Below are positions 33,851 through 57,137 of a stretch of DNA of 64,000 nucleotides, piece after piece. The notes under the pieces were generated by a model, which saw nothing but the letters and a program-made list of their open reading frames with translations, had not been told where the DNA came from and made no database searches. Where the stretch lies: assembly GCA_964563715.1 (NCBI GenBank), contig CAZLXA010000001.1, positions 33,613 through 97,612 on the forward strand, in the 5' to 3' direction. The position numbers and the translations under genes are program-made. Source of the stretch: an uncultured Candidatus Saccharibacteria bacterium. GTDB taxonomy: Bacteria; Patescibacteriota; Minisyncoccia; Phycocordibacterales; UBA9973. The first letter of the stretch is position 1, and the number at the start of each line of letters is the position of its first letter.

Positions 33851-33887
33851 ATTATTAATTCGTAATTATTAATTCGTAATTATTTTT
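33851..33887. repeat. AATTCGTAATT-type repeat at the dnaN stop
   Basis: ATTATTAATTCGTAATTATTAATTCGTAATTATTTTT. Confidence 0.6.
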
Positions 33888-38852: not shown

Positions 38853-38951
38853 AATTACGAATTACGAATTACGAATTAAAAAAATACTTGAAACGAAGTT
38901 TCAAGTATTTTTTGTTTCACATCCGTAATTCGTAATTATTAATTCGTAATT
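38853..38951. repeat. Inverted pair of AATTACGAATT-type repeats around a bidirectional terminator hairpin (38878-38914)
   Basis: AAATTACGAATTACGAATTACGAATT ... hairpin ATACTTGAAAC-GAA-GTTTCAAGTAT ... CCGTAATTCGTAATTATTAATTCGTAATTAAT. Confidence 0.65.
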
Positions 38952-40452
38952 AATTTAGGTCCAAACTCCACAATGTTGAGTCTTTTTTATTAGTGAAGAA
39001 TAAGGTATTTTCTGTTTTATCTAAGAATAGATAAGTTCCGTCAACTGGTGTTTCGGTTGTTGAATTAGCCAATGTTGTTTTATTACCAGTCCCAGTATTT
39101 ATTTTTACAAAATAATCATCAAAAGAAACAATTCCTTGATACCAAATATCTGGATATTGATTTCCAGTTATAACACTTGGGATGGCACAATAAATACTAA
39201 TACGGTCAGATGACCAAACACATTTTTCTGGCAAACCATAAGTATCTAAATCTTTGGTGGTATTTGTACTTATATTATAAACACCAAGGCGAGGGCCAGT
39301 TGGGGTCGAAGTGTTATATAAAACCATAGAACCATTTGGGTTAATCATTGTTGTTAGGCCATCTATCCCCCCAAGAATTTTAGTCGTAGTTTTGTTTATT
39401 TGATTTAATGAAAACATACTGCCCTCAACACTATAAGATGGTTTGGTTGTTAAATATATTTTACCAACACTATCCCACTCAGAGAGCCATTCAGTAAAAG
39501 GAGAAGTAAATACTATATCCCTTTTTGTCTCCCCAAATATTCCAACTGTTCCTGTGACGCCACTACTATTTTCTGTTAGATAAAAATATTTTGTTTTATC
39601 AGGAGAAACACTAATGTTTGAAATATTTTGCGGCAAGAATTCTCCTTTTGGTGCACCAAGCGAAGCTACAAAACTACTAATAAGATTATCACTTGAAAGA
39701 TATCTGTAAATAACTGTCTCACCTCCCCTATTAAATAAAGCTTCATAGATACTTGGGATAGTTGAATTAGAAATTTTGTCTTTGTTCTTGGTGTCTAAAA
39801 ACATTTTATAAATGTGACCATTCATTCTCTCAACATAACGGATAGAAGGAGCAGTTTCGAACTGACTTTTTTCTGGACTATCACCAACTTTTGTAGTTTT
39901 TAAGAAAAAAGGAGCAGTTTCAGTATCGATTTGACCTGTTTCTGTAAGATTATTTAATTTTTGAAAATCTTTGATTGCTTGGATTGATTTTTTGCCTAAA
40001 TTTCCATCGGCCACAAGTGGTGGATTAAGAGAAAGACTTTGATTTAAAAAGATTTGAATATCTTTTTTCCCTTCTTTAGTTGTTGAATCTATGACTGTTG
40101 TAATTTCTGTGGGGGCTGGAGTTTCGGTTGTTGTTTCTATTGGTCTTGTATCTTCTAAAAAGGTGGCACCAGCGATAGCAAAGTCGGTAATCTTAGTGAA
40201 ACGTGAATATGTTGATATTATGTTGCCAGGCTCTTGGTTAACAATATTACCGTCACCATTTGTATTATTTGGGTCGAGTTCCCCGTTGTTATTAATACCA
40301 CCAGTACCAAAAGGATTAAAACTTTGATACCAAGGACTTGTGCCATCTGGACTCGTTGTTTTGTCTTTATTAATCCAAAAATAAACTCCGAGGATAATTA
40401 TTCCGGTGGTGATAAAAACTGTTATAAAAAGAATGATTGTTTTTTTTGACAT
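38950..40452 (-). CDS. Membrane-anchored protein with a peptidoglycan-binding (PG_binding_1-like) domain and a C-terminal beta-rich domain; first gene (3'-most) of the T4SS-like locus
   Basis: TM IILFITVFITTGIIILGVYFW, Pro/Thr linker, LVADGNLGKKSIQAIKDFQKLNNLTETGQIDTETA. The track ORF extends to 40542, but the internal start MSKKT (40452) avoids an 86-nt overlap with the upstream gene. Confidence 0.55.
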   Translation of the reverse strand: MSKKTIILFITVFITTGIIILGVYFWINKDKTTSPDGTSPWYQSFNPFGTGGINNNGELDPNNTNGDGNIVNQEPGNIISTYSRFTKITDFAIAGATFLEDTRPIETTTETPAPTEITTVIDSTTKEGKKDIQIFLNQSLSLNPPLVADGNLGKKSIQAIKDFQKLNNLTETGQIDTETAPFFLKTTKVGDSPEKSQFETAPSIRYVERMNGHIYKMFLDTKNKDKISNSTIPSIYEALFNRGGETVIYRYLSSDNLISSFVASLGAPKGEFLPQNISNISVSPDKTKYFYLTENSSGVTGTVGIFGETKRDIVFTSPFTEWLSEWDSVGKIYLTTKPSYSVEGSMFSLNQINKTTTKILGGIDGLTTMINPNGSMVLYNTSTPTGPRLGVYNISTNTTKDLDTYGLPEKCVWSSDRISIYCAIPSVITGNQYPDIWYQGIVSFDDYFVKINTGTGNKTTLANSTTETPVDGTYLFLDKTENTLFFTNKKDSTLWSLDLN

Positions 40453-40456
40453 AAAA

Positions 40457-42115
40457 TTATAGTGAACAATATTTTGGCTCAGGGCAATTTGGATACTTAC
40501 AAGTTTGTTTTCCTCCACCGTACTCAAAATGCCAAGCCTCAAAATTTAACCTTTGAAAACCCGCCTTATCTAATATTTTTTCTATTTCCCCAGAAGCACG
40601 CGTATTTTTGCAGTTATTTACTTTTTTACCATCAAAATAAAAATAAAAATCAACAGCGGAACCAACCCCATGATTACTTAATGCAGGGTATGCATATTTC
40701 TCTCCTAAACCACCAGGATTTTTGTATATGGAATTACACATTACCCTAATTTGATCTTTTGCTGGCCTATAAACAGAGACAACCTTAAAAGAATAATTTC
40801 TATTTGGTATTGAACCCTGAGCAATAAGGGAATCAATCGCGGGTTTTATTTTTTTTAACCCTAATATTACATTACTAGCAGCTGTACAATTTAAACAACC
40901 AGAATTTTTTTCTACATTCGGTATCTTATCAAAATTTTGAGCCAACGATGGAGACATTACACCCGGAGGAGTGCCTGTATAGTCTTTACCATTATTTGTA
41001 TTAGTGCATAATGCCTTGCAAGTTGTTATATCTGTACATAATTTAGTTGTTCCATTACCACCTCCTGTAGATTTGATTTCTTGCACATCCATTCTTATGA
41101 CCTCTTCTTCTATAGCAGCGCTGACTTGATCAATACGGACTCCCCCATTTAATAAGTCCGGATTGATGGTATTTAGTAATGCATATGAGCCGAGAGCAAT
41201 TAAAAGTCCCAAGATGGCAGCCATTATTTTACTTTTGGCTTCCGTTTTCCCAAAAATTGATTCATCTCCCATGTATTGAATTCCACCGAGGACAATCATA
41301 ATTACAGCTAGAGCTCCACAAAGCCCGATAGCAATCAAAAATATAGTATTAAAATATTCACCAATATTATCTGGAGCAAATTTGAAGTTACCAATCGGTG
41401 CGAGAAGTTCATATACTTCATTACCCCCCGTGCCATTATTTTCTGGGTCAATATCTTGTGGGTCAACTGCGAGTTTGAATCTTTGAGAACTAACAGCTTC
41501 ACCCGCTGGGTTACGAACAGTAATGCTTCCATCAATTGCTCCCATAGGGACTGCAACAGTAAGGGTGTTATCAGTTTTTATTGCGGTAGACATATCTGCA
41601 CTTTTTATTCCAAAAAAGACAGCTGAAGTATTTCCAAGGTTAGCTCCTTTTATTGTTATGTTTTCCCCTATCTTAGCTTCAAGGGGAGAAACACTTGTAA
41701 TTGTCGGCTTGTTTATATCAACAATCATTCCCTCTGGAGTTACATTCACTGATTTTTTAATTTGAGGAGTGGTATTTAAAGTAAAATTAAAAGTATATGT
41801 AATACCCCCAGTTAAAACATTCCCTGAATAATAAACCGAAGCGTGGTCTATGACCGTAATATTTCGTGCAGGGACTACTATATTCTGAAGTTGTAAACCT
41901 TCTACTGTAATCGATGTATTGTCTGGAGTGTATGTAGTTTTTATGTTGAATTTATAACCGAAGAGCTTCCCATCATCACTTTGGGTAGGGATAGGGGTAG
42001 CGATTGTCATAGATGGTGTAGGTCCTACAGCCTCGACTTTTTGTATTTTACTAACAGAAAAAAACGGAGTTAAAATTAATGTTATTAAAAAAAGGTATAC
42101 AAATAATTTTTTCAT
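40457..42115 (-). CDS. Secreted IPT/TIG domain, double-TM pilin-like (VirB2/TrbC-like) segment, and C-terminal M15 (VanY-like) peptidoglycan peptidase in one fusion protein
   Basis: Signal peptide. IPT-like PTITSVSPLEAKIGENITIKGANLG...SITVRNPAGE. Two TM helices IFLIAIGLCGALAVIMIVLGGIQYM / IMAAILGLLIALGSYALL. M15 motifs SNHGVGSAVD (SxHxxGxAxD) and EAWHFEY (ExxH). Confidence 0.6.
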   Translation of the reverse strand: MKKLFVYLFLITLILTPFFSVSKIQKVEAVGPTPSMTIATPIPTQSDDGKLFGYKFNIKTTYTPDNTSITVEGLQLQNIVVPARNITVIDHASVYYSGNVLTGGITYTFNFTLNTTPQIKKSVNVTPEGMIVDINKPTITSVSPLEAKIGENITIKGANLGNTSAVFFGIKSADMSTAIKTDNTLTVAVPMGAIDGSITVRNPAGEAVSSQRFKLAVDPQDIDPENNGTGGNEVYELLAPIGNFKFAPDNIGEYFNTIFLIAIGLCGALAVIMIVLGGIQYMGDESIFGKTEAKSKIMAAILGLLIALGSYALLNTINPDLLNGGVRIDQVSAAIEEEVIRMDVQEIKSTGGGNGTTKLCTDITTCKALCTNTNNGKDYTGTPPGVMSPSLAQNFDKIPNVEKNSGCLNCTAASNVILGLKKIKPAIDSLIAQGSIPNRNYSFKVVSVYRPAKDQIRVMCNSIYKNPGGLGEKYAYPALSNHGVGSAVDFYFYFDGKKVNNCKNTRASGEIEKILDKAGFQRLNFEAWHFEYGGGKQTCKYPNCPEPKYCSL

Positions 42116-42116
42116 A

Positions 42117-43112
42117 TTATAAATTTAATTTTAATTGATTATTAATTTTTTGAAATAATTCATTCATATTTTGTATAACTAAACTTATTGTTGCATATCC
42201 CCCACGTGATGTTGGTCGGACTGTGAGTTCGTTTTTCTTTGAGGGGGTTTGAATATTATTACCATTTATTTTCCAATTATAAGTAAAATTAGTTTCATTG
42301 TTTTTTAAAGTTAAAAAGTATGGTTCAGCAATGAGAGTTACTTCATCTTCAAACATATCAGCTTCTTTTTCTAAAGCTTGATTATAAAGTATTCCTTCAG
42401 TTGGGGATTTTTTATAAAAAACTATTTTAGGACTGTAAGTTGGAATTTGTATTGTTTTTTCAGCCGTATAGCGTCCATCAACAGAAGAAGCAGCAACGGT
42501 AATTTCATTTTTTGTATCAAACATACTGTTTTTAAAAATATATGAATTTTTATTATAGCCGGACGCATCTAAAACTGCACTATTATTGTTTTTCCAATTA
42601 TAAGTAATACTTCCACTACCGGATTTTATAGTATCGGTATTTGGAATTGCTACAGCCTTAATTAAGGAACCACTAGATGGAAGAGATTTACCCTTATAAA
42701 AAGGTGGAGTATAACCATTGACTGATTCCCACATAATTTCGATTTCCGAAGGAGTGATAGCGATTCTTTTATTGATTGTCGTCATTGAACCTACCGGAGT
42801 AATAGTGATATCAAAAATATTAGCCGTATTAGGTCCGGAAGCTTTAAATGAATAACTTGTTTTTCCAATTCCAGAGAGGACAGTATTACCAGATGTTTTC
42901 CAAACTATAATTGCTTTATTTAAATCAGTCGCATAACTAGTCAAAGTTATTGTTACATCTTCATATGGAGCAGGATTATTTGGATTAACCTCAACACTCA
43001 ATTCATTATCTTGAACTTCGATTTGCATCTCAGCTAAAGAATTATACGGCCAATTTAAGATGGTCAAAACAAAAATCAAAACTAGAAAAAATTTTATTTT
43101 TATTAATTTCAC
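42117..43112 (-). CDS. Secreted beta-rich protein, hypothetical
   Basis: Signal peptide MKLIKIKFFLVLIFVLTILNWPYNSLA; 331 aa. Confidence 0.45.
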   Translation of the reverse strand: MKLIKIKFFLVLIFVLTILNWPYNSLAEMQIEVQDNELSVEVNPNNPAPYEDVTITLTSYATDLNKAIIVWKTSGNTVLSGIGKTSYSFKASGPNTANIFDITITPVGSMTTINKRIAITPSEIEIMWESVNGYTPPFYKGKSLPSSGSLIKAVAIPNTDTIKSGSGSITYNWKNNNSAVLDASGYNKNSYIFKNSMFDTKNEITVAASSVDGRYTAEKTIQIPTYSPKIVFYKKSPTEGILYNQALEKEADMFEDEVTLIAEPYFLTLKNNETNFTYNWKINGNNIQTPSKKNELTVRPTSRGGYATISLVIQNMNELFQKINNQLKLNL

Positions 43113-43155
43113 TATGTTTATTATATAATAACTTTCACCTCATAACAACAGGCCT

Positions 43156-44991
43156 TTAACCGTTGTTTGCGGCCAATAATTCCCCTTTGGCTTTTTTAAT
43201 CGCTAAAATTTGTGACGGGTCGGAAGTAATGATTTGATCTTCAGTATAGGAGGCAATAGTCTTAATAGCCACATGCTTTAAGCCAGCAAAGAATATTCCC
43301 TCGCCAACATTAGCTTCGAGTAATAAATATTTTTCTTCCTCAGTCAAATTAAATGTTTTTTGTAAAACATCAACGGTTGAAGGAGATTGTTTTAATAGTA
43401 ACTGAATAGAAGAATTGGTCACGATCGGTATACCATAAGCACTTTTCATGAAGTCACCAACATCTTGAGTAATTGTCGCTAAGCCTAAATAATATTTTCG
43501 GCCTCTTTTTGCAATAGAGTAAAGAAAAGATGCTGTATCTTCGGATTTCATCATCCACCAAGCTTCATCAACAACAAGTAAGCGTTTCTTGATATTTTTA
43601 CGAACGGCATTCCAAATATAATGAGTAATGATATACATAGCAATTGGTTTTAATTCATCTTCCATGTCGCGAACTGAAAATACAATAAACTTACGATTAA
43701 TATCAATATTTGAAGGTTGGTTGAGGAATGAAGACCATGAACCATGAGTATATTTGGTTAGTCTTTGCATTAATGATTCACTTCCCTCCATCCCAGAGAG
43801 AATAACTTCAAAGTCCGATAACATTGGCGGTTCAATATTTCTAAAATCAGAATCAGCGGTAATATCTTTAAGAGCATAAGTTTCAGTAATAGCTGTATCA
43901 ATAATAGAATCCTCTTCAGGAGTTAAGCCTCCCAACATAATTCTAAATAATCCAACTAAGCTAATAGTATTAGAGCGTAAAACATCGGCTGGGGTTTCAT
44001 CGCCTGTTGGAATTGGTAAATCAAATGGATTAATGTGATGGTCCGATGATAGAGCAATATTAAAACATCTTCCACCAATAGCTTCGGCTAAATATTCATA
44101 TTCTCGTTCAGGGTCAATAACAATAACTTCAGTATCAAACATCAAAGTTCGAATAATTTCTAATTTTGTGGCATATGATTTACCAGCTCCGGATGTGGCG
44201 AAAGTAATAGAATTGTAATTTGGAAGTGAAAATCGGTCAAATAAAATAAGACTTGAGTTGTGACGATTTACTCCATAAAGAATTCCTTTATCTTCTGTTA
44301 AGTCAAAAGAAACGAATGGAAAAATACTTGAAAGTGGTTCAGTGTTTAATTTTTGATGAATGCCTAAAATGTCTGTTCCAAGTGGAATGACGCTTTTAAA
44401 GCCTTCATTTTGTTGAAATAGAGCTGGTTTTAGATAAATTAATTTTGATTCGAGTAACGATTTAATTTCATTTTCAATTTTAAATAAATCATTATCATCA
44501 TTAGCATAAACTGTAATATAAAGACCAACATCAAACATTTTTTCTTGGGCTTGCATTAAATTGTCTCGCAAATCCTCTAAATCTTTATAGGCCGTGTCTA
44601 GCATTGGATCACGAACAAGACCTTTTGATTCACGGATAGCAATTTGACTTTGGACTTCAGCCACTTTTTTCTGGAAAGACCTCAATATTTCAGCCGTTTC
44701 AATTGGGTGGATAAAAATAGAAACATCGAAAACTTTATCCAAATTGATAATTGGTGAAAACCAATTATCAGAAAGATAGCGAGGATATGAAATAACAAAA
44801 AATGTTCGGACGATTTTATCTCCCAAGTTAAGTGATTTAGGTGTTATCTGTAAAGCAGACGGAGCAATGATGTCTTGGAGTTCTAGAGTTGCCGCTTTAT
44901 AGACTTCATTCGGCAAAATTGGCATCATGCCACTTCTATTATTAGTGTCATTTGTTTTCCCTTTTCCAAATAATGATGAAAGTATACTCAT
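43156..44991 (-). CDS. VirB4/TrbE/CagE-family T4SS ATPase, C-terminal (ATPase) part
   Basis: Walker A FATSGAGKSYA, Walker B LLVVDEAWWMM (DEAW hallmark), and the DPEREY motif. Confidence 0.75.
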   Translation of the reverse strand: MSILSSLFGKGKTNDTNNRSGMMPILPNEVYKAATLELQDIIAPSALQITPKSLNLGDKIVRTFFVISYPRYLSDNWFSPIINLDKVFDVSIFIHPIETAEILRSFQKKVAEVQSQIAIRESKGLVRDPMLDTAYKDLEDLRDNLMQAQEKMFDVGLYITVYANDDNDLFKIENEIKSLLESKLIYLKPALFQQNEGFKSVIPLGTDILGIHQKLNTEPLSSIFPFVSFDLTEDKGILYGVNRHNSSLILFDRFSLPNYNSITFATSGAGKSYATKLEIIRTLMFDTEVIVIDPEREYEYLAEAIGGRCFNIALSSDHHINPFDLPIPTGDETPADVLRSNTISLVGLFRIMLGGLTPEEDSIIDTAITETYALKDITADSDFRNIEPPMLSDFEVILSGMEGSESLMQRLTKYTHGSWSSFLNQPSNIDINRKFIVFSVRDMEDELKPIAMYIITHYIWNAVRKNIKKRLLVVDEAWWMMKSEDTASFLYSIAKRGRKYYLGLATITQDVGDFMKSAYGIPIVTNSSIQLLLKQSPSTVDVLQKTFNLTEEEKYLLLEANVGEGIFFAGLKHVAIKTIASYTEDQIITSDPSQILAIKKAKGELLAANNG

Positions 44992-45638
44992 TTTAGTTTT
45001 ATACCCTGACTAATATCCCCAGGATTGAATGTTTTATAAAAAAGTTCGACAACTTGGTCAGTAGTTAATTCTGTTGTTCTGATGCCGACTCGTCCTAGAC
45101 CACTGATGATAACTCCAACCCGTTGGTCTAATTGAGTTCTTTTTTCTTCAAATGAAGCTAAATCCATTGCTTTTTTAGTATTTTCAATTTGTTTTTTTTG
45201 CGATCCCCCACCAAGCAAACTATCAACCATACCATCACTTGATTTAATAATTGTTGGACTGTAAGGCACAACAATAAAAAATGTTTTGGTCATAATATTA
45301 ACTTCATCAGTAAAAGATTTAATAAAATCAATATATTCTTTGGTTTGAATTTTTAGAAGTGGTTCAACTTGGGCTTTGAGTCTTTCTTCGAGCGATAAAA
45401 GATAATGTCTAATATCTAAACGGCGAGACTGCATACATATTTGAGTTGGAAAATCGAGTCCATTAATGAAATTTTGAAATTCATTAATAATGGCGGCTTG
45501 TTCATCGGAGGATTTTAAAGATAAATTTAAAGATGAAGCAAGTAATACCGCCCGAAGACCACCGTCTTTTAAAACGATGATACCATTTCGCACTTCTTTA
45601 ATTGGAACGAATTCTTGTGAACTTTTTGCACTAATCAT
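44988..45638 (-). CDS. VirB4-family N-terminal domain encoded as a separate ORF (ATGA stop/start overlap with the ATPase part)
   Basis: IKEVRNGIIVLKDGGLRAVLLASSLNLSLKSSDEQAAIINEFQNFIN resembles the N-terminal region of Gram-positive-type VirB4 homologues; 216 + 611 aa add up to full VirB4 length. Confidence 0.55.
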   Translation of the reverse strand: MISAKSSQEFVPIKEVRNGIIVLKDGGLRAVLLASSLNLSLKSSDEQAAIINEFQNFINGLDFPTQICMQSRRLDIRHYLLSLEERLKAQVEPLLKIQTKEYIDFIKSFTDEVNIMTKTFFIVVPYSPTIIKSSDGMVDSLLGGGSQKKQIENTKKAMDLASFEEKRTQLDQRVGVIISGLGRVGIRTTELTTDQVVELFYKTFNPGDISQGIKLK

Positions 45639-45646
45639 ATGTATAA

Positions 45647-45788
45647 TTAATTACGAATTACGAATTAATGATTACGAATTAAAAACTAATAACATTATAT
45701 CATAATTATGAACACTTTCACCCCTCTTTTTGTTTCTTAGTTTTAAACCCGTCTTTCATTCGTAATCCGTAATTATTAATTCGTAATT
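45647..45788. repeat. Inverted pair of AATTACGAATT-type repeats between VirB4-N and the PrgI-like gene
   Basis: AATTAATTACGAATTACGAATTAATGATTACGAATT (45647-45682) and CATTCGTAATCCGTAATTATTAATTCGTAATT (45757-45788). Confidence 0.65.
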
Positions 45789-45800
45789 GACCAAAACAAG

Positions 45801-46208: not shown

Positions 46209-46216
46209 TTGAGAAT

Positions 46217-46247
46217 AATTACGAATTACGAATTAATAATTACGAAT
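46217..46247. repeat. AATTACGAATT-type repeat
   Basis: TAATTACGAATTACGAATTAATAATTACGAATG. Confidence 0.6.
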
Positions 46248-46256
46248 GTGGGATGC

Positions 46257-46607
46257 TTATGATTTTGAAGTTTTTTGAATTGCTCCAATTATTCTTAATA
46301 TTTCTTCACAATCAAATATAAGTGTATCAGATTGTTGCTTGTTTAGAAAACCACTATCTGTTAAAAGGTGTAGCCAGTAAAGAGTCTCCCTTGCTTCTTT
46401 ATAAGAAATACTTATTTTTGAGATAAAATCATTTTTTGATTGTGCCCCAATTGCTTCTTCTATGTTTGCACCAATTGATGTTCCAGAACGAATTAATTGC
46501 TTTGAAAGAATGAATTCTTTTTTGTCTTTAGTTAGTTCCTGATATATTGTTATAATTTTAAGACTAAAATTATAACTTTTTTCCTTAATGATATTATCTG
46601 ATTTCAT
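46257..46607 (-). CDS. Four-helix-bundle protein (TIGR02436 family; the 23S rRNA intervening-sequence protein family)
   Basis: LIRSGTSIGANIEEAIGAQSKNDFISKISISYKEARETLYWLHLL is the family signature. Confidence 0.8.
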   Translation of the reverse strand: MKSDNIIKEKSYNFSLKIITIYQELTKDKKEFILSKQLIRSGTSIGANIEEAIGAQSKNDFISKISISYKEARETLYWLHLLTDSGFLNKQQSDTLIFDCEEILRIIGAIQKTSKS

Positions 46608-46639
46608 TCGTAATTCGTAATTATTAATTCGTAATTACC
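46606..46639. repeat. AATTCGTAATT-type repeat that includes the start codon of the four-helix-bundle gene
   Basis: CATTCGTAATTCGTAATTATTAATTCGTAATTACC. Confidence 0.6.
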
Positions 46640-47334
46640 TAAAACTCCTCTCGATAAGGGTCAATTTTTGGTTTACTATGATCTGTGACAGAGTGTCCGC
46701 TTGAAGTTGAAGCTTTCATTTTATCTTCAAAAACATTTTTGGGAATGTATTTTAATTCCTCATCTTGTTTAATAGGAGCTAGCTCTTGTTTTGGTATCTC
46801 ATTCGTAATTCCTAATTCTTCATTCCTAATTATCTTTCCTTGTTCCTCATTCTTAATTCTTAATTCGTCATTCGTAATTGTCCTCGCGTATGGTGGCAAT
46901 GGCACTTCGTCATCCTTGATGATGAATTCTTTATTGTTTGTTGTAGGTGATTCATTGTCTGTAGCTGGAATACCAATTTCTGTATTACTGCTGTTTAAAA
47001 ATTCAACATTTAATTCAAAAGTATTAACAAGATCATCTTTAATATCTTTTAAAATAGTAACATCTAGATCATCTAATATTTTATTAAATGTTTCTTCATT
47101 AAGTTTTAAATCTTTTTTAAGGGTTAAAACATAATCTTCTAGATGGATAATACTAAGTAGGACTAGTGTTGTTTCTGTTGCTAGGGTTTCGGTTTGCTCT
47201 TCATTAAGAGAATATTTAGTAGAAATATTTTTTAATATATCAATCCATTGCATAGAGTAAAAAACAACCTGAGCTTCTTTAGGTAGCCTCTGAAAATATT
47301 TTGATATATTTTGTTTTAATAATTCTTTCTCCAT
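46639..47334 (-). CDS. Hypothetical protein whose C-terminal coding sequence is built from degenerate copies of the intergenic TTCGTAATT repeat
   Basis: 231 aa. Nucleotides 46800-46880 (CATTCGTAATTCCTAATTCTTCATTCCTAATT...TTAATTCGTCATTCGTAATT) encode ITNDELRIKNEEQGKIIRNEELGITNE. Confidence 0.45.
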   Translation of the reverse strand: MEKELLKQNISKYFQRLPKEAQVVFYSMQWIDILKNISTKYSLNEEQTETLATETTLVLLSIIHLEDYVLTLKKDLKLNEETFNKILDDLDVTILKDIKDDLVNTFELNVEFLNSSNTEIGIPATDNESPTTNNKEFIIKDDEVPLPPYARTITNDELRIKNEEQGKIIRNEELGITNEIPKQELAPIKQDEELKYIPKNVFEDKMKASTSSGHSVTDHSKPKIDPYREEF

Positions 47335-47353
47335 TTATTTTTTTACTTTATTT

Positions 47354-50300: not shown

Positions 50301-50515
50301 ACACAACCAGTTGTTCCGACACTGTAGATAACTTCTTCTGGTTTTGGGGTATTGGTTGAATCTGGAAGAGGCTTAGGGCTAGTAAAAGATTCAGTTAAAA
50401 TTACACAATTCGCTGCTTCAGCTTTTTCAATTTTCGAACCATCATTAACACTAAAAGGCGCAAACAGTTGCACAATGATTGTCAGTATTAATATGTATGG
50501 CAAAAATTTTTTCAT
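47354..50515 (-). CDS. Large polytopic membrane protein, VirB6/TrbL-like core with a duplicated Cys-rich N-terminal ectodomain and Gly-rich C-terminal region
   Basis: Signal peptide; two ~150-aa Cys-containing repeats (TGC.G.L...N...; GD CD); at least 6 TM helices between residues ~400 and 700; GLAAAGGIALGGAALGGALIG. Confidence 0.5.
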   Translation of the reverse strand: MKKFLPYILILTIIVQLFAPFSVNDGSKIEKAEAANCVILTESFTSPKPLPDSTNTPKPEEVIYSVGTTGCVGKLARVNILAFPGPSVAFGSPELPVQRIAEDNFSFTFHTGEKTCERGDCNQIRIKLEILNDAGTSILTTSQSDESLAYECKTTGCTDPWLLKSTTGTELPAQTDCKITNVLFTPPTSTKPIRPDNATLYINTTGCQGQLLSELNIQASGTTNTTVLSIPRSTINSDNLSFALTTGETSCSGGDCDIIVDFYIRTSSTGQIITHYTSNKTDESDHFIFKCKGLGGDCDETSWSLGTATGTDQTAGSSSTTTVYYFDLTNTNGSVEHSANFPTEDSCKNVRDARAQNEESSGSGIVVSDCLSKTTMQTTAGTPTGSDQLPLCVFAHPIDGSFAGCMAQMFYYVFFVPTSYVFALAGTFLDFTFHYSVQDESYRTPFVVEGWGIVRDFCNMFFIFILLYIAFGTILNLHSVKTKEMIINVIIIGLLINFSLFTTQVIIDASNILARVFYNSDSIKITQNSTAGTAGLKIGPNGEIPLSAAIVNKVNPQNLIINGTKAVVIKDKVTNQTSTAEDTQGSLGVGAFILITLLATAVNIVGIIVFLSVGLIFVTRVIGLWFAMIFSPFVFFSYTVPSLQDMEMVGWKKWWPETLKLAFLAPIFIFFMYLIIAFLEKGLSLVKANDVNDGMTFVISVIVPFIFIMVLLMKAKDIAKDMSGKMGQSITNGLAAAGGIALGGAALGGALIGRKVIGGGLSALSKTDGATKRSNTKIQFNKDLEKWNSTPPNQRSGAKPDWKNYAAGAGIKSTTLNPFTALGSKLNVAQNKTNEVDRSRAHTDADIEKAGFKGFKWSELSGEQQKIVQDNVGKENYSKHLDDAERAYRNDPRNLAVDPKLNVVDSNTGKLKDLSLEQKKEVKDLAKSKAIDKFDDEINKASAGINAFTRVFSKANTGTWDLRKLSEASVDKRASVFTKIPVGLIAAVATGVRGGILKSSGLSHGTVKIEGDFLTDLKSTFKDAVKDMKIELPESHSGGDTKKVGHGNDGVHH

Positions 50516-50539
50516 CCTAATTTATTTTTCTCTCCACCC

Positions 50540-50573
50540 AATTCGTAATTTGTAATTATTAATTCGTAATTAC
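50540..50573. repeat. AATTCGTAATT-type repeat ~30 nt upstream of the VirB6-like gene start
   Basis: AATTCGTAATTTGTAATTATTAATTCGTAATTAC. Confidence 0.6.
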
Positions 50574-50579
50574 TCTCAC

Positions 50580-52907
50580 TTACCACAACTCCAATACCCT
50601 CTCTACTCCATCTAAGTATACTCCCTCTTTCCATTTACAACCTGCCCTTAGGGCAGCTTTAACCTTATCACTTCCTGCTCCACCAGAGGAGTAACCATAA
50701 AGATTACTGTTAATGGCAGCACACTTAAATGGTCTATCATTTAAAGAGTCACAGTCATCTCCTTCTTTTCCCCACACTGTTACCCCTTCTGGTCTTGCAG
50801 TAAAAGCATCTGTTACGAGTTTTCCACCGTATAAATACCCGGAAATATACTTACAGCCTTCACCCCCCCAATGATCTTCACCATTTATTGTCACTGTTCC
50901 AACCCCTCCTTCTAGAAGATTGTAATTTAAATATGGATTTTCGTTTCCAAAAGGAACGGAGCCAACTACTGCGGGTCTATACCATGGATTTCCATTTTGA
51001 ACCCAACCTCCATCCCCTCCTTTTGCTTTTACCTCTGCAACTTCTTTGTAGCAAGTATTAATTAATCCATCGGTTTGTGCAATAAAATTTTTATATTGGT
51101 CGATTTCACTATAGACAGTAATGATGTCTTCTTCCGTTTTAAGAGTGGAAGATATCAAATAAAACTTACGAAGAAGTTCAGCGAGTTTTGCTTTTTCTGT
51201 GTCTGTGAAAACAAGAGGGTTTTGTTCAATTAATAAACATTTATTTTCTGGTATCTCAATTTCTATTGGTGGCTCGGGAATCGTAGTATCATCATCTGGA
51301 ATAATAATTTCATCATCGCCAGGCGGAGGAAGTGAACCAGAAACAGTTAGGGTTGTCCAGCCACTACAATTATTTTCTTCATTTGATTCTTCGACTGTCC
51401 CGACATCAGAAATAGATTTTTTATCTGCACAAGCTCTAATTTTATAAACACCGGCTGAAGAGAAAGTATATGAGACAGATGTAACATTACTTTTCTGAGC
51501 AGTTAGAGTTGGAACAACAGCAGTTATTTCAACCCCGTTTGTGGTATTAATATCTCCAGTTAAAGCGACAGCTTTTTTGATTAAAGATATTTTATTAAGA
51601 ATTTTAACAAATATGTTTTTAATATTTAATTTTGAAACAGTTGTATTATCGCCATCTTCAACATCAATATTACTATCTTTAATAATTTGGAAAAAACTGA
51701 CGAAATTAAATCCAGTTGAACCATCCCCAATGTTTGTAATAATTGTTGTTAAGTTTACTGGGACATTTATTGACGCTGTTGTTGGTGTGACACTACTTGC
51801 AGTTAAATCAGGAGTTCCATCTTCTTCATTTCCACCCGCACCCAGTTTTTCCGAATAATGTTCTGGGTCATAGGAAAGAGGATTCGTCGCATCACCATCG
51901 GTATGACACTCTGGGTCAGAAGTATCTATTAAACCGTCATTATCATTATCAAGAGTGTCACTACATTGGCGAGTGTTGCCTCCCTCGCCTGGGAATACTG
52001 CTTCAGAATAGTGGTTTGGAACATAATCTTTATTTAAATCTCCATCAATGTGACATCCTGAATCTGAAGCATCTATCAATCCATCATTATCATTATCTAG
52101 TGTATCTTCACATTGTCTTTTATAATCTCCTCCCCCAGGAAATGTTGTTTCTGAATAATGTTCAGGGTCGTATGAGTCTGGATTGGTAGGGTCACCATCA
52201 GTATGACACTCTGGGTCAGAAGTATCTGTTAAACCATCATTATCATTATCAAGAGTGTCACTACATTGTCTTTTATAATCTCCTCCTCCCCCAGGAAATG
52301 TTGTTTCTGAATAATGTTCAGGGTCGTATGAGTCTGGATTGGTAGGGTCACCATCAGTATGACACTCTGGGTCAGAGGTATCTATTAAACCGTCATTATC
52401 ATTATCAAGAGTGTCACTACATTGGCGAGTGAAATCACCATTTCCACCATTTCCACCTCCATTATTACCATTCGTACCAAAGACACCGCCTATTAAATTA
52501 AAGAAAGAATTCCAAAAAGTATTTGCTCCATTATTATTTGTAATTATTTCTCCTAGTTCTCCGCCTCCCATATCATTTCCAGCAAAGCCAAAAATTTCAT
52601 CCCCTTGTTTTGACTTAACGACGATTGGATTATTGTCGGCATTTGTTCCAAACCTTGTAACATTGTCGCCTTTTTCTAAGTCTTCCCCTGCTTGAGCAAG
52701 TGTTCGGACAGAGTTTTCATCAATTTTACTAATATTTTTTTCATTTTCTGAAGTAATTAATGGGGCAAAAATTCTAGCAATACTATTTGAAGTTTTTACT
52801 CCAAACATGTCGCGATTTTTGAATAATAAATAACTAACAACCACTAGGAAAATAATAACAATGATTGTTATGATGAGGGCTTTACTTTTTCGCGGTTTAT
52901 TTTCCAT
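50580..52907 (-). CDS. Membrane-anchored secreted protein with four tandem ~48-aa thrombospondin-type-3-like Ca-binding repeats (DTLDNDNDGLIDTSDPECHTDGDPTNPDSYDPEHYSE)
   Basis: N-terminal TM; repeats are near-identical at the DNA level (51880-52440); C-terminal Cys-containing globular domain. Confidence 0.55.
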   Translation of the reverse strand: MENKPRKSKALIITIIVIIFLVVVSYLLFKNRDMFGVKTSNSIARIFAPLITSENEKNISKIDENSVRTLAQAGEDLEKGDNVTRFGTNADNNPIVVKSKQGDEIFGFAGNDMGGGELGEIITNNNGANTFWNSFFNLIGGVFGTNGNNGGGNGGNGDFTRQCSDTLDNDNDGLIDTSDPECHTDGDPTNPDSYDPEHYSETTFPGGGGDYKRQCSDTLDNDNDGLTDTSDPECHTDGDPTNPDSYDPEHYSETTFPGGGDYKRQCEDTLDNDNDGLIDASDSGCHIDGDLNKDYVPNHYSEAVFPGEGGNTRQCSDTLDNDNDGLIDTSDPECHTDGDATNPLSYDPEHYSEKLGAGGNEEDGTPDLTASSVTPTTASINVPVNLTTIITNIGDGSTGFNFVSFFQIIKDSNIDVEDGDNTTVSKLNIKNIFVKILNKISLIKKAVALTGDINTTNGVEITAVVPTLTAQKSNVTSVSYTFSSAGVYKIRACADKKSISDVGTVEESNEENNCSGWTTLTVSGSLPPPGDDEIIIPDDDTTIPEPPIEIEIPENKCLLIEQNPLVFTDTEKAKLAELLRKFYLISSTLKTEEDIITVYSEIDQYKNFIAQTDGLINTCYKEVAEVKAKGGDGGWVQNGNPWYRPAVVGSVPFGNENPYLNYNLLEGGVGTVTINGEDHWGGEGCKYISGYLYGGKLVTDAFTARPEGVTVWGKEGDDCDSLNDRPFKCAAINSNLYGYSSGGAGSDKVKAALRAGCKWKEGVYLDGVERVLELW

Positions 52908-52919
52908 GATAATTTTTTA

Positions 52920-55900
52920 TTAATTAGTTATTGTTTTTTCGAGCACCCAAGTACAGTCGTAGATTAGATATGGATCAGGGGATGGATCTGTTCCATTATT
53001 TGGTTGGTAATGTGAATATTGAGAACAGGCTGTTTTTCTTTGTGATTCTGTTGCTCCGGCTAGTTTAGCTGTATTGTCTTGCTCTTTACAACTTTTAATC
53101 GAAGAGCCGTATATAACTTTTGATGTTTGGTAATTAGGATTTGATTCACAGTGAGCCTCGATAATGGTTGTCTTCTGACAATCAGGATCTTTGCGGTCGA
53201 TTAAGCCATCTAAATCATCATCAAGATTATTATTACATCTCTCACCAACTGAGTCATTCATTATATCTGATTCATCATAATATAGAATATCTTCTTCTTC
53301 TAAACACTCCGCATATTCTGTTTTATATTCGGCCTCGGTCATAATATCTTTTTCACAAGCAATTCGTTTGGCTAAACAGTATTCCCCTAAATCATCTTGA
53401 TTTACTTCAGATGAGACATTGATTCTATTCATACAATCATCACTTTCTGCCAAACATTTTCTTTTTGTTTCTTCTTCTAATATTTTAACTAAATTTGCAT
53501 CACGACGGTCCTGTGCCGTTTTGATAATGATACTAACTTGTTTTTTAATTGCTTCTAATTTACCAATATTGGCTTTAGCTTGTGAAATATCACTACGATA
53601 TTGATTCATAACCGCTGTAATATCTTCATCGTATGCTACGATATCTCTTGTTAAGCTTAAACCTTCTTCTGCCATCGGAATATATGATGAATTTAGAGTT
53701 CTAGTTGTTGAGTCTTCTGTTTCATTATATTCTCTAGTCATATTAGAAAAATATGTAGTATTCATCATTTTATCAAATACTTCATAGAAATTATTAAACA
53801 TGTAATTATTAACCATGTATAAATAATTATCAACCCAAGTTTGAATTTTACCCTCCTCGTTATTATTATGAATTTCATTTCCAGTATTTAAACCTAGGGG
53901 CCAACCATAATAAAGATGTGGTTTATTTTTGTCATCTTCTTGGCCTTTTGCCAGCCAGCTCCAAACCTTTGGATTGTCTTTAAATATATTTTTCCAGGCC
54001 TCATATTCTTTATCTCCAGGTCTGGAAATTGTGAATTTAGTACTATCTCTTTCTAAAAACCCACCCTGGTTGTATGTTCCCACCATTGTTCCAACCCAAT
54101 CAGTATATAGACTTTCGTTATCTCCAACATTTGATTTGTAATTTGGATTTGGTCCTGGAATACAGTAATCAAGTTCTCCGAGTTTTGGCATGACATTGGG
54201 TAAAAATTGTAATGATTCTGTGGCCGCGACAATATAATCTTTTTGGACTTGAATTACTCCTCTTTTCTTTATAGGATTTGCTTGGTCTTTTTTCCAGTTT
54301 TGCCATTCACTGCCATTCCAAAAAGCTCGATCACCCAAAGCCCAGCCATTGTAACCATTTAATATTATTTTTGTTTTACCTGGATTTGCGACAGTGTAAT
54401 AAACATTTGAAGTTTGATTTACATTATTATCTAAATCTGACCCATTGTTTTGGCTGCTATAATTTACAGGAGCCAAATCAGGATATAAACTTTGATTTGT
54501 ATTTGTTAAATTGATATTTTCATTAGCATTCCAAGTTCCTAATTTTACAGGATTATCATATATATATGTATTACCAAGATCTCGAGTTAAATCAAAACCA
54601 CTTGAATATGCTCCATTATTATTATAAACACTTGATCCACCAAGACTGCCGTTTGTTGAATTGGTCCAATCCATGTTTTGTTCGTCATATATGTATTGTT
54701 CTGAAGACAAACCAGAAAGACCATTACTTTGAAGCTTTGAAAGTAAAATTGAAAAAACAGCGTTTAGGGACTCATTTATTGTGTCAGCTAATTCAAGCTG
54801 GCGCACCGGAGAGGTGATGTAAGCACTCATTTGATCTTTAATTAAACTTCCAGGAGTAACGATTTCCTTATCAACACAAACATCAAAACCCGAATCTGTT
54901 TTGTTTTTCTGATAAACATTATATTGTAAAACAGTAATTGCGTCTTGGCCTGGCATTTCTCCTAAATCTGGATCAATATATGGTTCACTATATATCTGTA
55001 CAACACCAGGTAGTTTCCCCATTCTATCTGGTGTACCTGCGGCTAATTCACTATATGGTACATCATTTGTTTTAGCAACACCGTTTTTATCAAATATTTG
55101 ATACATTGTACATCTTTTTTGACTCAAAAAACCATTATTTTGCAAAACCTCGGCTTTGGTGTTGGTTGTTTGACTGTTAATATCGTCAGCTAAATATTGA
55201 CTTGCTCTCATTGTAAAACCAAGAGGGTTATTTTGGTCTCTTTGTGTGAAGGCCAACCAGCCATCCCAACCCCCGGTTGAAAAATCATTTGAAAATGCAA
55301 TGTTTGCATCTTGGGCTCTCTGCATAGTGGTTCTTTCATCGTTGACGGTGTAATATGAATTTGGGTCTGTTATAAAAAATGATAAATCAGAAGTTAAATT
55401 ATTCAAGGCATTCGTTCCACTATTAAAAAGTCCTCCAGAGCGGTAGCCCCTGATGACTGATTGAGAGAAGGCTGTTCCATATGGATATGCACTATTTTGA
55501 TTGGTTAATTGATCGATGCCCGTTTCAAGGACATTTCTTTCTATACCGGTAGTTAGTGAGGTAATATTTTGGACATAGAGTGGATTACCACTAAAACCGG
55601 TATTAATCCAGCTTACAGCACTGCGTGTAAGGGCGGTCAGTTGATTTTTAGCAAGTGTTGTTGCTATGCCATTAAAACACCCTTCTAAATTATCTTTTGC
55701 TTGAGTTGCAGCCATTTCTTGAGTTTTGAGCCTTAGAGCTTCCCCGTCTTTGGTTTCTGTGATTTCCTTACAGTCAATCCCTTTATCTACACCAGTAGTT
55801 CCATCGTTGATTTCTGGGGTCACACCAGCAGCGGTAATAATAATTTTTTCACCCGCTACACACTGTTTTTTAGCCTGGTCTAGTATTACTTGTAATGCTT

Positions 55901-56177
55901 TGTTGGTTATTTTCTTTTTCCCAATTCTGTCCATCAAAACTGAAACTCTATTAACAACCCCTGTACAACCAACAACTTGCATCGCAACATCGGAATTAAC
56001 TACATCAGTAATTTTAAATTTGTATTTATCGTAAGTTTTACCACTTTTATTTGGTTTTTCCCAATCAATTTGGCTAGCGGCATTGACCGTTGTTGGTAAA
56101 ATAATTTGTAGAAAAGAAAAAACAAAGGTAAAAATTATAACCCCGCTAATTATTTTTGTTATAATTTGTTTTTTCAT
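52920..56177 (-). CDS. Very large secreted protein (1085 aa), hypothetical; one TSP3-like DDDLDGLIDRKDPDC motif near the C-terminus
   Basis: Signal peptide MKKQIITKIISGVIIFTFVFSFLQIILPTTVNA; Asn/Ser/Thr/Gly/Tyr-rich. Confidence 0.5.
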   Translation of the reverse strand: MKKQIITKIISGVIIFTFVFSFLQIILPTTVNAASQIDWEKPNKSGKTYDKYKFKITDVVNSDVAMQVVGCTGVVNRVSVLMDRIGKKKITNKALQVILDQAKKQCVAGEKIIITAAGVTPEINDGTTGVDKGIDCKEITETKDGEALRLKTQEMAATQAKDNLEGCFNGIATTLAKNQLTALTRSAVSWINTGFSGNPLYVQNITSLTTGIERNVLETGIDQLTNQNSAYPYGTAFSQSVIRGYRSGGLFNSGTNALNNLTSDLSFFITDPNSYYTVNDERTTMQRAQDANIAFSNDFSTGGWDGWLAFTQRDQNNPLGFTMRASQYLADDINSQTTNTKAEVLQNNGFLSQKRCTMYQIFDKNGVAKTNDVPYSELAAGTPDRMGKLPGVVQIYSEPYIDPDLGEMPGQDAITVLQYNVYQKNKTDSGFDVCVDKEIVTPGSLIKDQMSAYITSPVRQLELADTINESLNAVFSILLSKLQSNGLSGLSSEQYIYDEQNMDWTNSTNGSLGGSSVYNNNGAYSSGFDLTRDLGNTYIYDNPVKLGTWNANENINLTNTNQSLYPDLAPVNYSSQNNGSDLDNNVNQTSNVYYTVANPGKTKIILNGYNGWALGDRAFWNGSEWQNWKKDQANPIKKRGVIQVQKDYIVAATESLQFLPNVMPKLGELDYCIPGPNPNYKSNVGDNESLYTDWVGTMVGTYNQGGFLERDSTKFTISRPGDKEYEAWKNIFKDNPKVWSWLAKGQEDDKNKPHLYYGWPLGLNTGNEIHNNNEEGKIQTWVDNYLYMVNNYMFNNFYEVFDKMMNTTYFSNMTREYNETEDSTTRTLNSSYIPMAEEGLSLTRDIVAYDEDITAVMNQYRSDISQAKANIGKLEAIKKQVSIIIKTAQDRRDANLVKILEEETKRKCLAESDDCMNRINVSSEVNQDDLGEYCLAKRIACEKDIMTEAEYKTEYAECLEEEDILYYDESDIMNDSVGERCNNNLDDDLDGLIDRKDPDCQKTTIIEAHCESNPNYQTSKVIYGSSIKSCKEQDNTAKLAGATESQRKTACSQYSHYQPNNGTDPSPDPYLIYDCTWVLEKTITN

Positions 56178-56210
56178 AATTTAGCTATTTTAATTATATC
56201 ACTTTTATGT

Positions 56211-57137
56211 TTATTGTAAAATATTTGAAAGCTTTTCTAAGTCGAGAGCGATTGCATCGGTATATTTTTTATAATTAAGAACTGAACTCATACCAAGAAT
56301 TGGGTCGTTGAGCATTTTAACTAGTCCTTCAATCGATTGTGCGGTCTTTTCGTAATTATTAGCCAAAGCTAAATGAGTAGAAACCAAAGAACCCGGTACT
56401 GGAATACCAATTAGCTCACTACCAAAGGAACGATAAGCGACTGCGATTGTTTTAGCGGCGTATAAAGCTTGAGGGTCTTGAGAGCTTAAGCCTTGGGCAA
56501 TGATGACTAATTCACTTCCAATATCGGCATTTTCATATTTAGTAATTAAATTAGACAAATCATTATAGTATTTATCTTTTGTGTCCAATGATTCATTTTG
56601 GACAATATTCATATCAATTTTAGTGTAAATATCTGGAATAGGGGTCGCTTCAACCCTCTGACCAACAGCCTGAGCTACAGAGTCAATAGATTCTTGGTTT
56701 ATTTCTCCTGTTTGTTGTAGGGAAATGATGGTGGCAAAGAATTCTCGAGATAAAAGTTCATTGTCAGATATTTGCTTTGAGTCGTCACCTATAGAAATAA
56801 GGCCACTTTGTTCAAGGGATTTTTTCTTATTTGTGATAAATTCTCTATTTTTATCACCATTTTTCTTTGGATCAAGCCCCCAAAGGTATTCTTCCCAGTC
56901 AGCAATACCGTTTTCATTACTGTCTTTTTGAATAAGACCACCAACAGTCATTGTAATTTGCTCCCCCTCCCCCTTATTTGCTTTTTTATTTTTGAAAAAT
57001 GAAACAATTTCTTTGATTCCGAAAAAAAGCGCTATAAAAATAACAATAATTAAAATGACAGCTATAAATTTTTTGCTCGGAAGATATTTTTTAAGATTAT
57101 TCATGTTATCACAGACTTTTTTCTGTTCCCTTTTCAC
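56211..57137 (-). CDS. N-terminally membrane-anchored protein, hypothetical; last (5'-most) gene of the co-directional block
   Basis: TM FIAVILIIVIFIALFFGI; 308 aa. Confidence 0.45.
   Translation of the reverse strand: MKREQKKVCDNMNNLKKYLPSKKFIAVILIIVIFIALFFGIKEIVSFFKNKKANKGEGEQITMTVGGLIQKDSNENGIADWEEYLWGLDPKKNGDKNREFITNKKKSLEQSGLISIGDDSKQISDNELLSREFFATIISLQQTGEINQESIDSVAQAVGQRVEATPIPDIYTKIDMNIVQNESLDTKDKYYNDLSNLITKYENADIGSELVIIAQGLSSQDPQALYAAKTIAVAYRSFGSELIGIPVPGSLVSTHLALANNYEKTAQSIEGLVKMLNDPILGMSSVLNYKKYTDAIALDLEKLSNILQ

Follow-up and report, generated by a model that had tools for sequence, protein, structure and literature searches.

A type IV secretion locus between jag and rsmA

The window analysed here, a stretch of 64,000 nt from contig CAZLXA010000001.1 (assembly GCA_964563715.1), carries on its minus strand, at positions 38950-57137, a locus of twelve co-directional open reading frames (ORFs) predicted to encode a type IV secretion system (T4SS). 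The twelve ORFs lie between jag and rsmA, where a first-pass annotation made from the sequence alone had placed them. They are separated by gaps of 1–64 nt, apart from one 162-nt spacer and one 4-nt overlap (ATGA) between a 216-aa ORF and virB4. The membrane core consists of VirB4, a separate TrsD-like protein that resembles the VirB4 N-terminal domain, PrgI/VirB3 and an extended VirB6/TrbL, and five further conserved proteins of 331, 500, 231, 1085 and 308 aa keep a fixed order around it. We consider it very probable that the locus is the chromosomal, origin-proximal T4SS characteristic of Patescibacteria, derived from the MPF_FATA conjugation machinery of single-membrane bacteria, vertically inherited and deprived of its DNA-processing half. 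For comparison we used the best 80 of at least 592 VirB4 relatives in GTDB species genomes, together with L081, a more distant relative genome whose VirB4 is 68% and whose VirB6 is 31% identical to the protein of the window.

VirB4 and its membrane partners

The 611-aa protein scored 374 bits against the NCBIfam model NF045971 (VirB4-like conjugal transfer ATPase, CD1110 family; cut-off 325 bits) and also matched Pfam P-loop_TraG (83.5 bits) and AAA_10. The first-pass annotation had named a VirB4-family ATPase with the motifs FATSGAGKS and DEAW and had set a comparison with VirB4/TrbE profiles as a check beforehand; the family cut-off is passed, and both motifs are intact, the Walker A at aa 264-272 and DEAW at aa 475-478.

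The same annotation had taken VirB4 to be split into two overlapping ORFs. Both ORFs and their overlap are real, but the arrangement is not a secondary split. The 216-aa protein matched the N-terminal region of the VirB4_plasma model (E=5.9e-9) and, under the curated cut-off, the TrsD model NF041427 (E=6.9e-6), and its orthologue in L081 has a PF26593 TraC-like match. Since each of the 80 related loci has the TrsD-like gene and virB4 as separate genes, whose products are typically 214 and 613 aa long, a frameshifted VirB4 can be ruled out, and the apparent split is the ancestral TrsD plus VirB4 arrangement. By its profile matches, the 216-aa product is a predicted stand-alone homologue of the VirB4 N-terminal domain. 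A TrsD and VirB4 gene pair is familiar from pGO1-type plasmids. Among Patescibacteria, TrsD is the most abundant T4SS partner gene (PMC12102498). Immediately upstream of TrsD/VirB4 in 76 of the 80 relatives lies PrgI, and the PrgI/VirB3-like protein proposed for this place in the window scored 36.9 bits against PF12666 (cut-off 27).

Neither the 1053-aa protein nor any of its 28 orthologues gave a direct Pfam match, TrbL included, and a profile of the family compared with PDB sequences gave nothing significant. A search with its membrane core retrieved homologues that carry Pfam TrbL or TrbL_3, several of them named type IV secretion system protein. Residues 406-723 align to aa 44-342 of the homologue P0090 (BLASTP E=3e-41), a region that overlaps the part of P0090 (aa 99-329) that exceeds the Pfam cut-off for TrbL. 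Because of this alignment to a TrbL-positive protein, we assign the 1053-aa protein, by transitive homology, as an extended VirB6/TrbL. It comprises a signal peptide, a Cys-rich ectodomain at about aa 24-400 that is internally duplicated (33% identity, E=5e-14), the TrbL core at aa 406-723 (48347-49300) with six transmembrane (TM) segments, and a hydrophilic C-terminal domain at aa 724-1053 that ends the protein as a charged tail. The polytopic VirB6/TrbL-like protein of roughly 1050 aa with a duplicated Cys-rich ectodomain that had been proposed is thus borne out. Among relatives it is conserved in the core only, and the N-terminal ectodomain is replaced.

A pilin-like hairpin fused to a peptidoglycan hydrolase

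The 552-aa protein had been described as a fusion of an IPT domain, a double-TM segment and an M15 peptidase. It has a signal peptide, a TIG domain (aa 137-200, 28.3 bits), a two-helix hairpin (aa 249-317; 41165-41371) with TM segments at 258-276 and 297-315, and an M15 (VanY-like) domain (aa 438-532; 40520-40804). The VanY match is weak, at 18.7 bits against a cut-off of 25, and the LAS-type zinc-ligand motifs SNHGVGSAVD and EAWHFE are present. The description therefore stands for these parts; what it had missed is that the double-TM segment resembles T4SS_pilin (PF18895). The protein of the window scores 22.1 bits against this family (cut-off 26.6), which matches in 27 of the 29 orthologues of the gene, and TrbC/VirB2 (PF04956) matches in 8. 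These family matches identify the double-TM segment as a putative VirB2-like T4SS_pilin module, and with the usual VirB2-type hairpin topology both domains added to it would be extracellular.

The domain that follows the hairpin differs among the 29 orthologues: NlpC/P60 in 7, two M15 types in 3 each, YkuD, Amidase_5 and CHAP in 2 each, and SLT and 3D in 1 each. The N-terminal ectodomain is likewise variable (TIG, FN3-like), and the L081 pilin, of 220 aa, is plain and has no hydrolase. The 126-aa hairpin module, used as the query of an exhaustive search, matched 14,499 cluster representatives at E<=1e-3, and domains were scored in 100 of the 150 nearest. T4SS_pilin was present in 80 of these 100 and TrbC/VirB2 in 7, and about two thirds carried a peptidoglycan-active domain (VanY 37, YkuD 10, SLT 7+2, NlpC/P60 7, amidases 2). 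Two representatives of the pilin module, P0397 and P0431, hold four hairpin modules in one polypeptide of about 615 aa, as fused pilin arrays. The text of a recent survey of patescibacterial T4SSs (PMC12102498) names VirB1 homologues associated with virB4 in Paceibacteria as well as VirB2-like pilins, and no fusion. That the pilin module is usually joined to peptidoglycan-enzyme domains of an interchangeable kind is a modest addition at the level of components, not a new system.

A bolder reading, to which we give little credence, is that the VirB2-like module could polymerise, or sit at the tip of the T4SS conduit, and display M15, NlpC/P60, YkuD, SLT or amidase cassettes together with variable binding domains (TIG, FN3). 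The hypervariable ectodomain of VirB6 and the orphan protein of 1085 aa would join it in a host-specific "drill" that breaches host peptidoglycan and sets host range. If true, this would be a structurally new, decorated T4SS pilus in which cassette swaps are driven by an arms race with the host.

Synteny and conservation in related genomes

In nearly all of the full-flank loci among the 80 genomes, the gene order is uvrD-rsmA-308-1085-(775)-1053-(231)-PrgI-TrsD-VirB4-331-552-530, followed by jag-yidC-rnpA and then dnaA, where 530 is the listed ORF of the 500-aa protein. L081 has the identical order and homologues of all ten core genes. The neighbours are thus co-located with VirB4 in other genomes, as the first-pass reading of the locus had supposed. 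The best 80 VirB4 relatives belong to metagenome-assembled genomes of Paceibacteria, Nomurabacteria and Parcubacteria, RAAC4_OD1_1 among them, at 75-94% identity; judged by these matches, the source genome is Paceibacteria/Nomurabacteria-like and not a member of the Saccharibacteria.

In the 49 genomes that have both VirB4 and DnaA, the median identity was 78.6% for VirB4 against 65.3% for DnaA, with VirB4 higher in 49 of 49, in a comparison that favours VirB4 through the choice of loci by VirB4 similarity. TrsD (59%) and PrgI (53%) also lay above YidC (46%), and the surface proteins reached 27-43% over part of their length only. Such values are what one expects of a core machine that is passed on vertically under strong selection while its exposed parts diversify rapidly.

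No relaxase, type IV coupling protein (T4CP, VirD4), VirB11 or integrase was found in a scan of the locus genes and of the ten largest ORFs in the remainder of the window, which left out outside ORFs of less than about 310 aa; the first-pass annotation had likewise seen none. This scope applies to all statements on DNA-transfer genes below. A decayed integrative and conjugative element (ICE), or a plasmid-derived island that came to lie near the origin by chance, would account for the fact that VirB4, TrsD and PrgI are closest to Gram-positive conjugative elements (CD1110 family, pGO1 TrsD, Mycoplasma ICE). Such a remnant would not be expected to keep context and order identical in dozens of genomes at 68-94% VirB4 identity, nor a VirB4 more conserved than DnaA. 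Neither an integrase or relaxase nor flanking direct repeats or a deviation in GC content was seen (0.31-0.37 in the locus, the same as in the remaining window), and in the published phylogeny 99% of patescibacterial VirB4 proteins are closest to a homologue of the same class (PMC12102498). Conservation pattern and synteny point to a vertically inherited core, and we regard an ICE or plasmid remnant as ruled out for practical purposes, its probability being very small indeed. With VirB4 above its cut-off, a fixed synteny and no transfer genes found, the earlier view of the locus as a contact or secretion apparatus and not a conjugative element is upheld. The features of the locus are collected in Table 1.

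Table 1. Genes and other features of the locus, with window coordinates
Feature	Position	Strand	Basis or remark
308-aa first gene, bitopic membrane protein	56211..57137	-	one TM segment, position kept in relatives
1085-aa secreted/anchored surface protein	52920..56177	-	
775-aa variable surface protein	50580..52907	-	NF033662, CARDB
1053-aa extended VirB6/TrbL (putative)	47354..50515	-	transitive homology
231-aa soluble protein	46639..47334	-	no TM segment
Inserted cassette with four-helix-bundle gene (46257-46607, 116 aa)	46216..46637	-	PF05635, TIGR02436
PrgI/VirB3-like small membrane protein, 135 aa	45801..46208	-	PF12666
216-aa TrsD-like protein	44988..45638	-	VirB4 N-terminal region/TrsD models
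VirB4 ATPase, 611 aa, MPF_FATA / CD1110 type	43156..44991	-	NF045971, P-loop_TraG
331-aa bitopic Ig-like protein	42117..43112	-	AF2 model
552-aa pilin-hydrolase fusion (putative)	40457..42115	-	TIG, T4SS_pilin, VanY
500-aa bitopic protein, last gene	38950..40452	-	PG_binding_1
Inverted (AATTCGT)n arms around bidirectional terminator-like hairpin, jag / cluster-end gap	38853..38951	.	RNA fold
"Empty" inverted-repeat hairpin, (AATTCGT)n family, in 162-nt PrgI-TrsD spacer	45649..45788	.	RNA fold
Solo (AATTCGT)n-family arm about 25 nt upstream of VirB6 start codon	50540..50571	.	

Further conserved and accessory proteins

The 331-aa gene lies just downstream of virB4 and is present in 76 of the 80 relatives and in L081. 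No Pfam domain was found in 120 homologues of its product, and a comparison of the family profile with PDB sequences gave nothing significant. An AlphaFold2 (AF2) model with a predicted local distance difference test (pLDDT) score of 85.2 shows an N-terminal TM helix and, after it, three Ig-like beta-sandwich domains in tandem, and Foldseek returned generic Ig-domain arrays only, not the NTF2/VirB8 fold. A VirB8 identity of this protein is therefore ruled out.

For the last gene, the form that begins at ATG 40452 and encodes 500 aa is the true one, its M1 being invariant in orthologues; the listed 530-aa ORF begins at an upstream TTG. The protein has a TM anchor, a PG_binding_1 domain (39916-40065, 32.8 bits), in line with the PG-binding-domain protein of the first-pass annotation, and a conserved C-terminal part of about 310 aa. 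PG_binding_1 recurs in 4 of 29 orthologues and hints of PD40 in 3, the family profile found nothing significant among PDB sequences, and a 390-aa gene in L081 is homologous. Compared with TolB, the C-terminal domain gave E=0.27, which is not significant; it is possibly a TolB-like beta-propeller.

In the first gene, listed at 308 aa, the likely true start is ATG 57104, which gives 297 aa and agrees with the orthologue consensus start MxxxxxLPSK. The protein has a helical ectodomain and an acidic DxNxNGIxDWEE motif of TSP3-like appearance, and D72, D80 and W81 are invariant in 29 orthologues. The L081 orthologue shows a faint TSP3_bac match, and the family has no PDB profile match. The 1085-aa protein belongs to a conserved orphan family, with 18 Cys and one acidic double-disulfide motif near the C terminus, at aa 981. 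Its family profile gave nothing significant against PDB sequences, and a model of the conserved part (aa 140-720, 80-sequence alignment) with pLDDT 70.8 and a predicted template modelling score (pTM) of 0.40 shows long helices and small beta domains. In the 231-aa protein the N-terminal 110 aa or so are conserved, between VirB6 and PrgI in relatives, and the C-terminal half is of low complexity. It matches no Pfam or NCBIfam model, and in L081 a homologous gene of 197 aa occupies the same place (E=1.7e-13).

Three secreted giants had been reported, one of them with four thrombospondin-type-3 calcium-binding repeats. Only two of the accessory proteins, those of 775 and 1085 aa, are truly giant, and the repeats turned out to be of another kind. 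The 775-aa protein has an N-terminal TM anchor, four acidic double-disulfide repeats at aa 163-334 (51813-52430) and a CARDB domain (25.8 bits); the repeats match NF033662 in four stretches (91.4 bits, cut-off 41), and neither Pfam TSP_3 nor TSP3_bac matched at E<=0.01. Acidic Cys-flanked or DxDxDG-type motifs are common to three of the encoded proteins: the 308-aa protein contains DSNENGIADWEE, the 1085-aa protein a single CxxxLDDDLDGLIDxxDPDC, and the 775-aa protein four copies. The shared motifs suggest a common surface module that may be calcium-binding or disulfide-stabilised. Since the 775-aa gene occurs in 11 of the 80 relatives and the four-helix-bundle gene in 5, both are classed as accessory, and the comparison places the 775-aa gene outside the predicted core.

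A dispersed repeat family and an inserted cassette

The first-pass annotation had also seen a repeat, AATTCGTAATT, at almost every gene boundary of the locus. It is strongly non-random, with 31 matches against 5.5 expected, and belongs to a heptamer-based 25-nt unit, AATTCGTAATTATTAATTCGTAATT, of which there are nine copies with no more than 3 mismatches, where chance would give none. The family occupies only 5 of the 12 locus boundaries, however, and occurs also at ruvB/ruvC and near dnaN, as well as in related genomes; the repeat is a genome-wide dispersed element and not a feature of the T4SS.

Copies pair as inverted arms and give strong hairpins. Three inverted pairs lie around the terminator-like hairpin at the jag/cluster-end gap (RNA fold -38 kcal/mol, z=-9.1), in the PrgI-TrsD spacer (-35.4 kcal/mol, z=-5.6) and around the four-helix-bundle gene. 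"Empty" hairpins or solo arms of (AATTCGT)n were seen at 29020-29053 and 33857-33881, besides the three listed in Table 1. Sense-orientation copies are often immediate 5' leaders (ruvC, the VirB6-like gene, a small ORF after dnaN), and for ruvC and the four-helix-bundle gene an arm leads directly into the start codon. Possible roles are RNA processing, a leader function or mobility of the kind of miniature inverted-repeat transposable elements. Inside the 231-aa ORF, degenerate in-frame heptamer copies at 46800-46879 encode low-complexity sequence of the RIKNEE or IRNEELGITNE kind, and the repeat may have been absorbed into this coding sequence.

The four-helix-bundle protein that had been proposed is real and belongs to the 23S rRNA intervening-sequence (IVS) protein family (PF05635, 98 bits; TIGR02436, 108 bits). 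Inverted arms of 33 nt, at 46216-46248 and 46605-46637, enclose its gene exactly, the 5' arm running into the ATG. Its position varies in the few relatives that have it: at the 231/PrgI site in L079, L031 and L064, downstream of PrgI in L055, and elsewhere in L041. The four-helix-bundle assignment is thus confirmed but not the membership in the system; this distribution marks the gene as a sporadic inserted cassette, which looks like an IVS-like mobile cassette in an operon spacer, and not as a predicted T4SS component.

Flanking genes and the rest of the window

On one side the locus is flanked by dnaA (35191-36555), rnpA, yidC and jag (38387-38851, plus strand), on the other by rsmA/ksgA (57184-58116) and uvrD with an intein (58228-61314). 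The ten largest ORFs outside the locus are housekeeping genes (malic enzyme, Fpg, RsgA, PolA, a PilB-type ATPase, RuvB, a class I tRNA synthetase, PBP1 and DnaN) plus unknowns. Counts in a promoter and terminator scan were no different from those in shuffled sequences, so that the operon structure could not be resolved, and an Rfam scan found three tRNAs only, all outside the locus. The PilB/GspE-type T2SSE ATPase with an MshEN domain, at 25275-26975, lies at a distance of 12 kb from the T4SS; it is the motor of a type IV pilus and not a VirB11. The uvrD/PcrA gene is interrupted by the intein (Intein_splicing at aa 276-631, a Hom_end Hint domain); the uvrD genes of relatives mostly align over about 20% of the UvrD of the window, these genes being largely clipped at the ends of the fetched loci. 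Two large ORFs, at 20259-24002 (1247 aa) and 61699-63903 (734 aa), have no Pfam match.

Relation to known systems

The T4SS of Southlakia epibionticum resembles Gram-positive conjugative systems and has pilins without recognisable coupling or relaxase proteins (Wang et al. 2023, PMC10633639). Its cluster, SEML1_0006-0019, contains in order a VirB6-like protein, PrgI, a small protein and VirB4, plus PF18895 pilins, and most of its genes were essential for epibiotic growth by transposon sequencing, SEML1_0012 being an exception (PMC10633639). Southlakia is the only case in which such a requirement is known. A survey of 3,035 genomes placed the VirB4 proteins of Patescibacteria in a monophyletic clade nested in MPF_FATA (Quiñonero-Coronel et al. 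2025, PMC12102498). It found TrsD, PrgI/VirB3, VirB6 and VirB2-like pilins to be widely distributed, very few VirB8 homologues and almost no relaxases, and located the Paceibacteria locus near dnaA, dnaN, rnpA, ksgA and rpmH (PMC12102498). A 2025 review gives a matching picture (PMC12857230), and our literature search met no mechanistic advance among papers of 2026.

Measured against the Paceibacteria arrangement of the survey, the locus has the same VirB4 with TrsD, PrgI/VirB3, VirB6 and a PF18895 pilin near virB4, VirB1-type hydrolases, whose association with virB4 is specific to Paceibacteria, no relaxase, and the dnaA/rnpA/ksgA location; at the level of the system nothing differs (PMC12102498). 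Absent from the text of the survey are the pilin-peptidoglycan-enzyme fusion, the Ig-like 331-aa protein and the 1085-, 308-, 231- and 500-aa families, which would be "grey" unannotated genes in its synteny figure. Repertoire and location match the published T4SS, which makes the finding a correct rediscovery. The system, its lack of a relaxase, its pilins and its dnaA/rnpA/ksgA position were published between 2023 and 2025 (PMC10633639, PMC12102498, PMC12857230), and the first-pass annotation overstated the novelty when it set the fusions and giant accessory proteins outside canonical systems.

With the cluster of Southlakia ML1 the locus shares the core order of VirB6-like protein, PrgI, small protein, VirB4 and cell-wall hydrolases, as well as PF18895 pilins and the lack of a recognisable coupling protein or relaxase. 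Southlakia differs in belonging to the class Saccharimonadia and in having six small separate pilins, separate peptidase and lysozyme genes and an NTF2-like protein, whereas here one pilin module is fused to a hydrolase and no NTF2-like protein was detected. The conjugative T4SSs of the MPF_FATA type (pGO1/pSK41 Trs, pCF10 Prg/Pcf, the C. difficile conjugative transposon CD1110 family) have the same CD1110-type VirB4, a stand-alone TrsD upstream of VirB4 as in pGO1, PrgI/VirB3, a polytopic VirB6 analogue, an anchored multidomain peptidoglycan hydrolase (the PrgK/CwlT role) and no outer-membrane core. Unlike the locus, they have a relaxase, VirD4/TcpA and VirB8-like NTF2 proteins, are borne on plasmids or ICEs and lack VirB2-like pilins; the locus lies on the chromosome, is inherited vertically and includes a pilin module, and no DNA-processing genes were found in the window. 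Of the marks of a conjugative system, then, an anchored peptidoglycan hydrolase was found (the 552-aa M15 protein with its zinc motifs), and a relaxase or T4CP, an integrase or patchy distribution, and an NTF2 scaffold were not. Extended VirB6 proteins likewise add large hydrophilic parts to a polytopic TrbL/VirB6 core (PMC12857230); in the present protein, what is added at the N terminus is a duplicated Cys-rich ectodomain swapped between close relatives and the C-terminal 330 aa or so form a charged cytoplasmic tail.

Proposed function

In the machine that these components suggest, VirB4/TrsD would dock via PrgI/VirB3 onto a membrane platform of VirB6. Recruitment of the pilin hairpin to this platform would bring its wall-cutting domain to the machine, where it could open the cell's own or the host's peptidoglycan. 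The Ig-like and beta-propeller-like bitopic proteins may span the wall in place of the missing VirB8 scaffold, and contact with the host might be made by the fast-evolving ectodomains, namely the N termini of VirB6 and of the pilin and the 1085-, 775- and 308-aa proteins. Since neither a coupling protein nor a relaxase is at hand, relaxase-piloted DNA is probably not the substrate. The cluster of Southlakia epibionticum suggests by analogy that proteins or host-derived macromolecules are most likely what the machine carries across the zone of contact. It may import macromolecules from the host or export effectors, and a role in adhesion only is less likely.

Several points weigh against our main interpretation. 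A VirB8-like (NTF2) protein was not found, in a check that covered the 331-aa protein by a model and left the 231- and 308-aa proteins outside modelling. The 1085-, 308-, 231- and 500-aa proteins have no identifiable function after profile and structure searches, and in the window the VirB6, pilin and M15 matches are indirect or under Pfam cut-offs. The conservation comparison, as said above, favours VirB4. T4CP homologues lie far from virB4 in many Patescibacteria (PMC12102498), so that the genome could encode one at another site. Finally, we infer expression, assembly and substrate in the source organism from the sequence.

Import is also the sole purpose under an alternative that we think improbable without dismissing it, a machine that takes up host DNA, nucleotides or other macromolecules in the manner of archaeal Ced or Helicobacter ComB. 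Patescibacteria are without nucleotide biosynthesis, ComEC-dependent competence is non-essential in Southlakia, so that another uptake route has been postulated (PMC12102498, PMC12857230), and the locus offered no recognisable candidates for exported effectors. Yet the CedB model gave 29 bits against a cut-off of 700, a generic P-loop similarity, neither CedA-like proteins nor ComB-specific parts were identified, the cluster has no DNA-binding or nuclease component, and the direction of transport cannot be read from sequence.

VirB4 powers pilus biogenesis in established T4SS biology, and the locus could on this account be an attachment organelle only, a decorated pilus or adhesion plaque with wall-remodelling enzymes in which VirB4 is the assembly motor and nothing is translocated. 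The pilin-like module with large extracellular domains at both ends, the many fast-evolving surface proteins and the failure to find a coupling protein would agree with this. A complete VirB6/VirB3/VirB4 channel core under very strong purifying selection would not, and adhesion is already given by type IV pili in Patescibacteria (PMC12206443), with a PilB-type ATPase present in the window. We rate such an organelle as unlikely, more so than the importer, and retain the patescibacterial T4SS derived from MPF_FATA machinery as our interpretation.

Few machines have been shown to be indispensable to the epibiotic life of these ultrasmall bacteria, and the T4SS of Patescibacteria is one of them. 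The locus described here is a clean and complete Paceibacteria example that adds little at the level of the system. The comparison shows a strongly conserved cytoplasmic core set against fast-evolving extracellular parts, and the lineage has an invariant core of ten genes, of which five are unannotated. What interest remains lies with the unannotated conserved partners and the cassette-like pilin-hydrolase fusions, which are candidates for functions in host contact and wall breaching.

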